From Escherichia phage BUCT788, in the sequence record PV540240.1: a stretch of 40,473 nucleotides of DNA; one strand, given 5' to 3'. Shown here in pieces: positions 26,610-27,821 of the stretch. Below the pieces are notes generated by a model, which saw nothing but the letters and a program-made list of their open reading frames with translations, was not told the origin of the DNA and did no database searches. Position 1 is the first letter of the stretch. Each line of letters opens with the position of its first letter. The position numbers were made by a program, and so were the translations under genes.

Positions 26610-27011
26610 ATGGAAGACGCTTACATAAGTGGTGGGTACTGGAAGGTTACTCGCAATGGTAAGGTTCATGGGGTTCATAGATTACTATGGGAGGAAGCCT
26701 ACGGTCCTATCCCAGATGGCTACGTCATAGACCACATTGACAGGAATCCTATGAATAACGAACTGTCAAACCTTAGGTGCATACCTAAAGGCGCAAACAA
26801 GGCTAACACTGTATCCTCTAGGGAACTACCTAAAGGCGTATACTCTAGGTTTGCTAAACGTCAAGGTGTAACTATGTACTATGGTGACATTAGGATGGGA
26901 GGTAAGAAAGAAACTCATGCTCCTACTAAGAATCTGAAGGAAGTCGTGGAATGGGCTAAGTCAACTCATAGCAGAATGCTAAAGGAGACATATGGTATTT
27001 CAAAAATTTAA
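26610..27011 (+). CDS. HNH homing endonuclease (free-standing), 133 aa
   Basis: HRLLWEEAYGPIPDGYVIDHIDRNPMNNELSNLRCIPKGANKAN HNH core followed by a LPKGVY-containing C-terminal region; AAGGAGG RBS. T7 has no gene between 18 and 18.5. Confidence 0.85.
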   Translation: MEDAYISGGYWKVTRNGKVHGVHRLLWEEAYGPIPDGYVIDHIDRNPMNNELSNLRCIPKGANKANTVSSRELPKGVYSRFAKRQGVTMYYGDIRMGGKKETHAPTKNLKEVVEWAKSTHSRMLKETYGISKI

Positions 27012-27438
27012 GAGAGCGGCTCCGTGGCTACTTGCAGCAGTGATGTTTGCTGGTGGCTACCACACCGCTAACAACAAGTGGGAGGCTAAGGTCAATGCAG
27101 AATACACCTCGAATCTTAAGGCATCGGAAGATACAAGGCTTGCTGTCCAAGCTGAAGTCAACAAAGTGTCCAAACGGTTTCAGGACGAAATGTCCGAGCT
27201 GGAAGGCAGCACTGATAGGATTATTACTGACCTTAAGTCTGACAATAAGCGGCTGCTCGTCCGAGTCAAACCTACGAGTGGAACCACGCAAAGTGACGGT
27301 CGATGCTTCATTGATGGTTACGCCGAACTTGACGAACGAGATGCTAAACGTCTTATCGCCATCGGAGTGAAAGGAGACAAGTGGATTAAGGCCCTTCAAG
27401 ACACTGTGAGAGCCTTACAGCAAGAGAAGGAGCAATGA
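26992..27438 (+). CDS. i-spanin Rz (T7 gp18.5-like), 148 aa
   Basis: N-terminal membrane anchor (PWLLAAVMFAGGY) and blocks LEGSTDRII.DL.SDNKRL.VRVK and RDAKR..A...KGD.WI.ALQDT.R.LQ matching recalled T7 gp18.5. Confidence 0.88.
   Translation: MVFQKFKRAAPWLLAAVMFAGGYHTANNKWEAKVNAEYTSNLKASEDTRLAVQAEVNKVSKRFQDEMSELEGSTDRIITDLKSDNKRLLVRVKPTSGTTQSDGRCFIDGYAELDERDAKRLIAIGVKGDKWIKALQDTVRALQQEKEQ
27047..27370 (+). CDS. Candidate o-spanin Rz1 (T7 gp18.7-like) embedded in the +1 frame of Rz; start uncertain
   Basis: Embedded ORF with a lipobox-like LTISGC (Cys codon at 27254..27256) after a hydrophobic stretch. No ATG lies near the signal peptide, so the true start is unresolved. Confidence 0.45.
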   Translation: MLVATTPLTTSGRLRSMQNTPRILRHRKIQGLLSKLKSTKCPNGFRTKCPSWKAALIGLLLTLSLTISGCSSESNLRVEPRKVTVDASLMVTPNLTNEMLNVLSPSE

Positions 27439-27821
27439 TGTTGACAGACTTTGCGTATTCAGACGGTAAGTTGTTCAGGAAGGGACGTGAAGTCGGCTCA
27501 ATGGACAACCACGGTTATCTTAGGACTACGGTCAACTACCGTAAGTATCTCGTACACCGTCTAATCTACAAGCTGCACAACCCTGAGTTCGCCCTTGAAT
27601 CAGACCTTGTGATTGACCACATCAACCGCAACCGGACAGACAACAGGATTGAGAACCTTCGGGCTGTGACCAAGGCTGAAAACAACAGGAACAGGGACCT
27701 GCCGAAAGGCGTGTCTTATTGTAAACAGACCGGGAAGTGGAAGGCTATACAACCTCGCTGGCTCGGTCGATTTGATACTGAACAGGAGGCAATTGATGCA
27801 GTTAACGCCGCAAGAGCGTAA
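27435..27821 (+). CDS. HNH homing endonuclease (free-standing), 128 aa
   Basis: [55 protein letters not shown], paralogous to the 26610 ORF; start overlaps the Rz stop and the 3' end overlaps the terminase start by 26 nt. Confidence 0.85.

Follow-up and report, generated by a model that had tools for sequence, protein, structure and literature searches.

The Escherichia phage BUCT788 (sequence record PV540240.1), whose complete, circularly permuted K1F-like genome (Kayfunavirus) of 40,473 bp is the whole window analyzed here, carries two genes, hereafter referred to as HNH1 and HNH2, at the junctions between the genes encoding the small terminase subunit (TerS), the Rz/Rz1 spanins and the large terminase subunit (TerL). 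We consider it probable that HNH1 and HNH2 are free-standing I-HmuI-like homing endonuclease genes (HEGs) of the HNH_3 family that were acquired independently, each of them at its own hot spot, within the late operon. The comparisons presented below, made at the level of sequences and models, show the family to which both proteins belong, an active site predicted to be intact, selection on the proteins, a sporadic and site-specific distribution, decay, alternative occupants of the same sites and mosaicism of the flanking DNA. The features of the locus described below and the gene 5 intron lie on the plus strand.

HNH1 (26610..27011) encodes a protein of 133 amino acids that matches the Pfam family HNH_3 (PF13392) with an E-value of 3.6e-18 and 65.3 bits (gathering score, 24.8), and HNH2 (27435..27821) encodes an HNH_3 plus AP2-type protein of 128 amino acids (HNH_3 E = 9e-18; 64.1 bits, gathering score 24.8) that may begin at the second ATG, at 27438 (127 amino acids), which is the start annotated in the phage phiYIO1-1. 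Both proteins match PHROG 99, annotated as HNH endonuclease, and the two HNH open reading frames (ORFs) proposed at these positions in the initial annotation are indeed present. When the proteins were aligned with I-HmuI (1U3E), residues D41, H42, N54 and N63 of HNH1 and residues D61, H62, N74 and N83 of HNH2 coincided with D74, H75, N87 and N96 of I-HmuI, which we take to be the catalytic and metal-binding residues of that enzyme. The four residues are invariant in the HNH1 family alignment, and among 56 HNH2 homologues D61, H62 and N74 are invariant and N83 nearly so. They are predicted to be the catalytic residues of HNH1 and HNH2, and they are intact in both proteins. The AlphaFold2 models of HNH1 and HNH2 reached predicted local distance difference test (pLDDT) values of 92.1 and 93.9, respectively, and in Foldseek searches the top match of both was I-HmuI (1u3e) with a probability of 1.0 (root mean square deviation of 2.6 across 69 columns for HNH1; E = 5e-4 for HNH2).

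The C-terminal region of HNH2 matches the DNA-bound AP2 domain of WRINKLED1 (Foldseek probability 1.0, 49 columns), its model being composed of strands at residues 93-96, 101-105 and 109-113 and a helix at residues 116-127. The match of HNH2 to Pfam AP2 (E = 0.0044) stays below the gathering threshold, and PF00847 occurs together with PF13392 in many HNH2 homologues. In the model of HNH1, the C-terminus forms a beta3-alpha domain from the LPKGV motif on, whose topology is similar to that of the HNH2 C-terminus; this domain gave no Pfam AP2 match, and its Foldseek matches to AP2 (0.3-0.47), to a double-stranded RNA-binding domain and to an integrase arm-binding domain were all weak. The pairwise ratios of nonsynonymous to synonymous substitution rates (dN/dS) against orthologues were 0.10-0.14 for HNH1 and 0.05-0.15 for HNH2, and such values indicate, therefore, that both proteins are maintained by purifying selection. 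Exact-sequence look-ups of the HNH1 and HNH2 proteins in public assemblies yielded no match.

The boundaries of the DNA segment that carries HNH1 were determined by BLAST and alignment against K1F, TM1 and YZ1. HNH1 lies within a 406-bp replacement cassette (26601..27006) that stands in place of 60-61 bp of the HEG-less relatives and contains its own Shine-Dalgarno sequence (AAGGAGG), the HNH1 gene, a new ribosome-binding site (RBS), a start codon and the first ~5 codons of Rz. The left edge of this cassette coincides with the 3' base of a hairpin located at 26547-26598, and its right edge falls within Rz, so that the N-terminus of Rz reads MVFQKFKR, derived from the cassette, in BUCT788 versus MLEFLKR in K1F. 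The HNH2 replacement cassette, of 408 bp (27433..27840), takes the place of 53 bp comprising the last 3 codons of Rz and the first ~15 codons of gene 19, which encodes TerL, and the RBS, the ATG and the first ~18 codons of TerL are held at its 3' end. Because the cassettes supply the RBS, the start and the first codons of Rz and TerL, a simple deletion of either cassette would damage these genes. It was also observed that HNH2 (AGGAGCAATGATG, 27427-27441) and gene 19 within the cassette (AGGAGGCAATTGATG, 27783-27798) have similar RBS and start contexts. Recombination between the two contexts would remove the HEG almost precisely with the TerL start kept, and their likeness may bear on a 397-bp deletion of the Hafnia phage Ca that is discussed below.

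HNH1 and Rz overlap by 20 nt, the stop codon of Rz and the start codon of HNH2 share the sequence ATGA, and HNH2 and gene 19 overlap by 26 nt. This last overlap, which the initial annotation had pointed out, holds if TerL starts at the ATG at 27796, and it is also annotated in phiYIO1-1. Since all the junctions overlap, HNH1 and HNH2 are embedded in the late operon, and they are predicted to ride the late transcript. No promoter or terminator of their own was found for HNH1 and HNH2, a result obtained without a dedicated promoter scan.

We refer to the 18/18.5 junction as site 1 and to the 18.5/19 junction as site 2. Judging by span lengths and alignments, about half of the closest phages have neither site occupied, and the same is true of K1F and T7; in these two phages and in many close relatives the genes adjoin directly at the two junctions, HNH1 and HNH2 being absent. 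The earlier statement that in T7 no gene separates 18 from 18.5 or 18.7 from 19 was confirmed. Site 1 was found empty (60-61 bp), occupied by HNH1 (406 bp, in BUCT788) or occupied by a gene of the Endonuclease VII family (306 bp, in phiYIO1-1; Pfam E = 4e-17). Site 2 was found empty (53 bp), with HNH2 (408 bp, in BUCT788), with HNH2b (483 bp), which is a different HNH_3 gene of 438 nt coding for 145 amino acids that is located at this site in SR04, 22664UKE3-2 and PM129, or with small ORFs (208 and 216 bp). The small ORFs, of ~55 amino acids, were observed in the IMG/VR contigs L023 (208 bp) and L026 (216 bp), in which TerL has the N-terminus of the empty type, and they showed no match to five nuclease reference proteins; therefore, site 2 accepts also inserts other than HEGs. 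The N-terminus of TerL has three forms, each of them tied to the occupant of site 2, i.e. SKDLVARQALMTARMKA when the site is empty, MSKKTPAERQAEMTQRMRD when it holds HNH2b, and the N-terminal ~17 amino acids of BUCT788, which are specific to HNH2-carrying genomes.

The two cassettes were found separately in other phages. The HNH1 cassette is present without HNH2 in TM1, YZ1 and PDP351P3 (92-96% nucleotide identity), and the HNH2 cassette is present without HNH1 in CtuP_B1, BDX03P1, PhiNW-B1 and P7124, its nucleotide identity being 92-98.5% in phiYIO1-1, BDX03P1, CtuP_B1 and PhiNW-B1 and 87% in P7124. In phiYIO1-1, the HNH2 cassette coexists with the Endonuclease VII gene. A record harboring both cassettes was not found among 50,697 phage genomes; the IMG/VR scan with Rz covered 11 loci only and is a small census, and the contig of a 97% relative, P0121, measures 1.2 kb and does not extend far enough for site 2 to be seen.

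Genes of the same types occur at the same positions in other genera, as an HNH1-type gene lies upstream of Rz in Przondovirus IME321 and an HNH2-type gene lies between Rz and TerL in Helsettvirus fPS-9. The protein identity between Kayfunavirus and Przondovirus is 75% for HNH1, 69% for the holin, 63% for TerL, 56% for TerS and 49% for Rz. Thus, HNH1 appears more conserved across genera than its neighbors, a pattern that would be expected of a horizontally spreading gene. Signs of decay were observed as well. At site 1 of the Yersinia phage fPS-9 (positions 1797-1978 of locus L032) there is an HNH1 remnant that retains residues 1-28 and 96-130 only, the catalytic core having been deleted, and truncated copies of 84-111 amino acids are present in the protein database. 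The initial annotation had described the two genes as mobile insertions; their mobility is supported by the patchy presence, the alternative occupants and the decayed copy, but they are not simple insertions, because each cassette replaces 53-61 bp. Neither of the two findings that the initial annotation had named as contrary to its proposal, presence of the genes in every relative or loss of the HNH catalytic residues, was obtained.

HNH1 and HNH2 share 40% identity over 72 amino acids (E = 1e-13), a stretch that takes in the LPKGV motif as well as the HNH core, in agreement with the common regions recognized earlier, and HNH1 shares 36% identity over 121 amino acids with HNH2b. A repeat search found only the HNH-core and LPKGV segments in common between HNH1 and HNH2, and it revealed neither flanking direct repeats nor target-site duplications at the ends of the cassettes. 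Genomes devoid of HNH2 contain HNH1 orthologues, and vice versa, with 92-98% identity. A local duplication was considered and rejected, since HNH1 resembles HNH2 no more closely than it resembles HNH2b, and the two genes have separate, near-identical orthologues; hence, the term paralogous that had been applied to them is correct as to common family membership and not as to duplication in place. HNH1 and HNH2 are distant family members that were acquired independently. We also rejected an HEG island moving as a unit, in which two HEGs mobilize the cargo that they enclose (PMC10448857), since both cassettes occur together in no other record among the 50,697 phage genomes and the Rz/Rz1 region between them is 97.7% identical to that of K1F. 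Rz being of the ordinary K1F type, the bracketing of the spanin genes by HNH1 and HNH2 has no demonstrated functional meaning.

The 5' region of gene 19 downstream of the HNH2 cassette has a mosaic structure. An exact copy of a 15-mer, GACTTCGTGTTCTTC (27850..27864), was present in 27 of 34 retrieved loci irrespective of the HEG state; it lies between the occupant-linked N-terminal segment of TerL and a sharply bounded mosaic patch delimited with a binned identity profile (27865..28040), and is a likely crossover point. The patch, of which BUCT788 carries allele B, is almost wholly silent; it shows 74-86% identity to most relatives and 92-100% to phiYIO1-1 and the HNH2b-carrying phages, and past it, from 28041, identity is 97-100% in every genome compared. 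When compared with K1F, 41 of 189 nucleotides differ in the patch and only 5 of 63 amino acids. The patch alleles cluster into four, i.e. A, A', B and the P7124 type, and a non-A allele is carried by each of the nine genomes in which site 2 holds an HNH gene versus two of the 19 genomes without it, the remaining 17 having allele A. The positions that separate all the HEG carriers from allele A cluster at 27889-27927, where all of them are silent, and include a serine-codon switch from TCA to AGC at 27889-27891. In BUCT788 and phiYIO1-1, the HNH2 cassette is joined to the B patch that elsewhere accompanies HNH2b, whereas the other HNH2 carriers have A'. This arrangement suggests that HNH2 may have recombined into a background once held by HNH2b and, thus, that one endonuclease gene may have displaced another at site 2.

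Some considerations weigh against the assignment of HNH1 and HNH2 as homing endonuclease genes. The activity of the two proteins, the position of their targets and the biased inheritance of their genes are what we infer from sequence. The association between the patch and the HEG at site 2 is significant in a Fisher test (p = 8e-6) that ignores shared ancestry, and the sample contains at least one probable duplicate, as the IMG/VR locus L021 and vB_EcoP_F are both 39,300 bp in length. Two genomes, phiHAO1-1 (A') and the IMG/VR locus L022 (B), are exceptions with a non-A patch and an empty site 2, and the patch, instead of conferring immunity, could be foreign sequence that simply hitch-hiked. 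The flanks of HNH1 showed no linked variants past the junction base 27009, so that a signature of co-conversion is missing for this gene, and any self-immunity of HNH1 must come from the replaced 61 bp. Moreover, the divergence of HNH1 within Kayfunavirus parallels that of its flanks, and vertical descent with repeated loss would give the same picture.

If HNH1 and HNH2 are homing endonuclease genes, during a co-infection the enzyme would nick or cut the DNA of a relative lacking the gene close to the 18/18.5 junction, in the case of HNH1, or to the 18.5/19 junction, in the case of HNH2. Recombinational repair from the HEG-carrying genome would then copy in the cassette together with some adjacent DNA, that is, intronless homing. 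The self-immunity of HNH1 would be explained by a target most likely located within the replaced 60-61-bp segment that spans the intergenic region and the start of Rz, and that of HNH2 by the replaced 53 bp, by the silent cluster at 27889-27927 in gene 19, or by both. The suggestion of the initial annotation that HNH2 targets endonuclease-less alleles fits the comparative evidence, but the intron-less alleles that it also mentioned are irrelevant because gene 19 is intron-free here. A further, more speculative proposal, which we hold to be possible but on the doubtful side, is that the 5' end of gene 19 is contested by endonuclease genes that displace each other, leaving an immunity patch behind and their cassettes entrenched. 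According to this proposal, the ~180-bp silent patch of HNH2b, with its core at 27889-27927, may remain as an immunity allele against cleavage, and the takeover of the RBS, the start and the N-terminal codons of TerL and Rz may represent the genetic entrenchment of a selfish element.

Part of these observations would also be accounted for if HNH1 and HNH2 were former homing genes that are now retained for supplying the starts of Rz and TerL, possibly tuning their expression, their patchiness being the outcome of the ordinary mosaic recombination of T7-like phages. Each cassette does carry the RBS, the ATG and the first codons of the downstream gene, HNH1 lacks a co-conversion tract, mosaicism affects many other loci of Kayfunavirus genomes, and in the Hafnia phage Ca genomes without the 397-bp HEG fragment predominated in small plaques and intact genomes in large plaques (PMC8861465). 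However, dN/dS ratios of 0.05-0.15 over the whole protein and the invariant catalytic residues point to selection on the nuclease that goes beyond the ~20-26 nucleotides of overlap, a deletion of the HNH core is shown by the fPS-9 remnant to be compatible with continued Rz expression, and the same family is found at the same site across genera with an identity above that of the flanks, all of which makes the loss of homing an unlikely explanation.

The plaque-size correlation observed in the Hafnia phage Ca (PMC8861465) would equally agree with HNH proteins that act as packaging cofactors of the terminase and that, like HK97 gp74, are needed for or stimulate the formation of DNA ends, as would the location of HNH1 and HNH2 between TerS and TerL and the assistance to cos cleavage by terminase-adjacent HNH proteins in HK97-like phages (Kala et al. 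2014, as discussed in PMC8861465 and PMC10448857). Nevertheless, neither gene is present in K1F, T7 or about half of the closest relatives, all of them viable phages, the TerL of BUCT788 is of the T7 type and not of the HNH-dependent family described in PMC8861465, the proteins are of the I-HmuI-like HNH_3 type with a predicted sequence-specific DNA-binding domain, and the same sites hold elsewhere an Endonuclease VII-family gene or small unrelated ORFs. Packaging as the main role was rejected on these grounds, since K1F, T7 and about half of the closest relatives do without these proteins, which are neither a conserved nor a required partner of the terminase, and we give it hardly any credence. 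Only marginally less improbable is that the nucleases are mainly weapons or counter-defense devices that degrade the DNA of rival phages or of the host, or that promote a beneficial local amplification or recombination. Phage HEGs are known to cause marker exclusion in T-even phages (PMC2988022), and the T4-type SegB is reported to promote the amplification of anti-defense loci (PMC13096335), but nothing at the BUCT788 locus points to a benefiting cargo, whose Rz/Rz1 genes are of the ordinary K1F type, and this explanation overlaps with homing rather than excluding it.

The preferred interpretation, that of homing endonuclease genes, finds precedents in several systems. The closest one to HNH2 is that of the Hafnia phage Ca and the Citrobacter phage CR44b, of the same genus, where the HEG lies at the lysin(Rz)/TerL junction and overlaps both neighbors (PMC8861465), and in phage Ca the ATG of TerL is located upstream of the HEG stop codon, as for HNH2 (PMC8861465). 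The HEG of phage Ca is dispensable and polymorphic, since a variant with a 397-bp deletion segregates in the population (PMC8861465). With 143 amino acids it looks of the HNH2b type rather than of the HNH2 type, judging by its length only, and, unlike in BUCT788, a second HNH gene upstream of Rz was not reported (PMC8861465). Annotated orthologues exist in TM1 ("homing endonuclease") and YZ1 ("HNH endonuclease") at site 1, and in phiYIO1-1 (gp48, "putative homing endonuclease") at site 2; they show 92-98.5% nucleotide identity and the same boundaries and overlaps, and none of these phages combines both cassettes. I-HmuI (1U3E), an intron-encoded HNH nicking endonuclease of the Bacillus phage SPO1, has a ββα-metal core with the D-H...N...N arrangement of HNH1 and HNH2, but differs from them in being encoded in an intron and in its C-terminal DNA-binding region, and the identity of the cores is only 22-32%.

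The HEGs in which HNH at the N-terminus is combined with AP2 at the C-terminus (Magnani et al. 2004, as cited in PMC10448857), the IPA-HNH HEGs of ICP1 among the systems compared, have the architecture of HNH2; the C-terminal domain of HNH1 is not clearly AP2. HNH-AP2 HEGs are found near terminase and other essential genes and at recombination boundaries (PMC10448857). The IPA-HNH domains are too divergent to match Pfam HNH_3 (PMC10448857), whereas HNH1 and HNH2 match this family strongly. The seg and mob HEGs of T4 are, like HNH1 and HNH2, free-standing between conserved genes and sporadic (PMC2988022). Their flanks are co-converted, and alternative HEGs are found at one locus, as here, with SegH and Hef in place of mobC and mobE (PMC2988022). 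These HEGs differ from the BUCT788 ones in the phage family and in the recombination machinery, and they often cut hundreds of bp away from their own gene (PMC2988022). Intronless homing, co-conversion and marker exclusion have been reviewed (PMC2988022). Free-standing HNH HEGs at these junctions of T7-like phages are, thus, already annotated and partly described; what is new, and minor, is the presence of two cassettes in one genome, the explicit anatomy of the replacements and the evidence of endonuclease turnover at the TerL start.

With regard to the rest of the locus and the genome, BUCT788 aligns end to end with K1F with about 90-97% identity and encodes an endosialidase tail spike. The nearest record is that of the Escherichia phage phiYIO1-1 (96% across a 19.6-kb structural block), and the alignment to K1F places the genome ends of BUCT788 near position 30253/30254 of the record. 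The gene order at the locus is holin, TerS (PF11123), HNH1, Rz with Rz1 embedded in it, HNH2 and TerL, and the neighbors named in the initial annotation were all confirmed. The Rz-type i-spanin, gene 18.5, is located at 26992..27438 (phrog_1327, E = 1.5e-57), and from 27007 on it is 97.7% identical to that of K1F. The Rz1-type o-spanin maps to the annotated gene 18.7 of K1F and lies inside Rz in another frame (27095..27370), with a TISGC lipobox-like motif in the translation of this open frame. TerL, gene 19 (27796..29559), is of the T7 type (Pfam Terminase-T7_RNaseH-like, E = 5.3e-38; PF22530, and PF03237 weakly), and its start codon at 27796 is preceded by GGAGG 8 nt upstream.

The hairpin that borders the HNH1 cassette is a conserved long RNA hairpin of the 18/18.5 intergenic region (26547..26598) with a folding energy of -23.4 kcal/mol (z = -3.74), none of 200 shuffled sequences being equally stable. 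It is conserved in K1F, TM1 and 22664UKE3-2, and in phiYIO1-1, which carries the Endonuclease VII insert, its loop is altered. By its position it resembles what we take to be the R18.5 RNase III processing site of T7. The sequence ATTACTATAGG, located upstream of HNH1, was considered as a candidate phage promoter and discarded, as folding assigned it to the loop and stem of this conserved hairpin. No Rfam match was obtained at gathering thresholds anywhere in the BUCT788 genome, the HNH1-HNH2 region included.

A third HNH gene, intron-encoded as stated previously, is real. This gene (5.3; 4833..5228) is an HNH_3 gene (E = 1.9e-16) located inside a group I intron of the DNA polymerase gene 5 (4738..5338), the latter recognized by a match to the full RF00028 model (38.3 bits, E = 5e-8) that is below the 50-bit gathering score and appears only with an E-value threshold. 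Gene 5 of K1F is annotated as two joined exons around gene 5.3, and the intron is absent from phiYIO1-1. In addition, there is a third endonuclease hot spot directly after gene 19 (29560-29783) that is empty in BUCT788 and holds a 543-nt ORF in phiYIO1-1 (gp50), pO91 and SR04, which in phiYIO1-1 is annotated as HNH endonuclease; in IME321, too, TerL is followed by an HNH gene. In fPS-9 (locus L032, 2796-5243), TerL is annotated as g046 and g048 with an HNH gene, g047, between them, an arrangement suggestive of a terminase gene that is split or interrupted by an intron in Helsettvirus. In TM1 (locus L013, 3457-3909), Rz is annotated after the HNH1 cassette as two fragments of 90 nt and 255 nt; either the spanin gene is interrupted there by a frameshift or a stop, or the sequence contains an error. 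Other hot spots of indels or replacements with respect to K1F were observed at 6002-6214, 12365-12468, 31033-31542, 31691-32418 and 38064-38133. In the early region, an ORF of 115 amino acids (31898..32245) gave weak matches to helix-turn-helix or Brinker-type DNA-binding domains, and another one of 167 amino acids (31026..31529) gave no Pfam match.

Because HEGs of this kind at T7-like junctions had already been annotated and partly described, the finding carries little weight for basic biology. In the engineering of K1F-type therapeutic phages, however, removal of the HNH genes would have to be accompanied by restoration of the native 5' ends, as essential genes would otherwise be damaged, and in cocktails of related Kayfunaviruses the nucleases could bias the outcome of recombination. 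The locus constitutes a compact natural system, in a T7-like phage, to study homing, the immunity of the target and the turnover of endonucleases, for which the three allelic states at one site and the defined cluster of silent single-nucleotide polymorphisms are useful. If the 5' end of gene 19 is indeed contested by mutually displacing endonuclease genes, the silent-site diversity of early gene 19 across the Studiervirinae would result from endonuclease pressure and not from drift.

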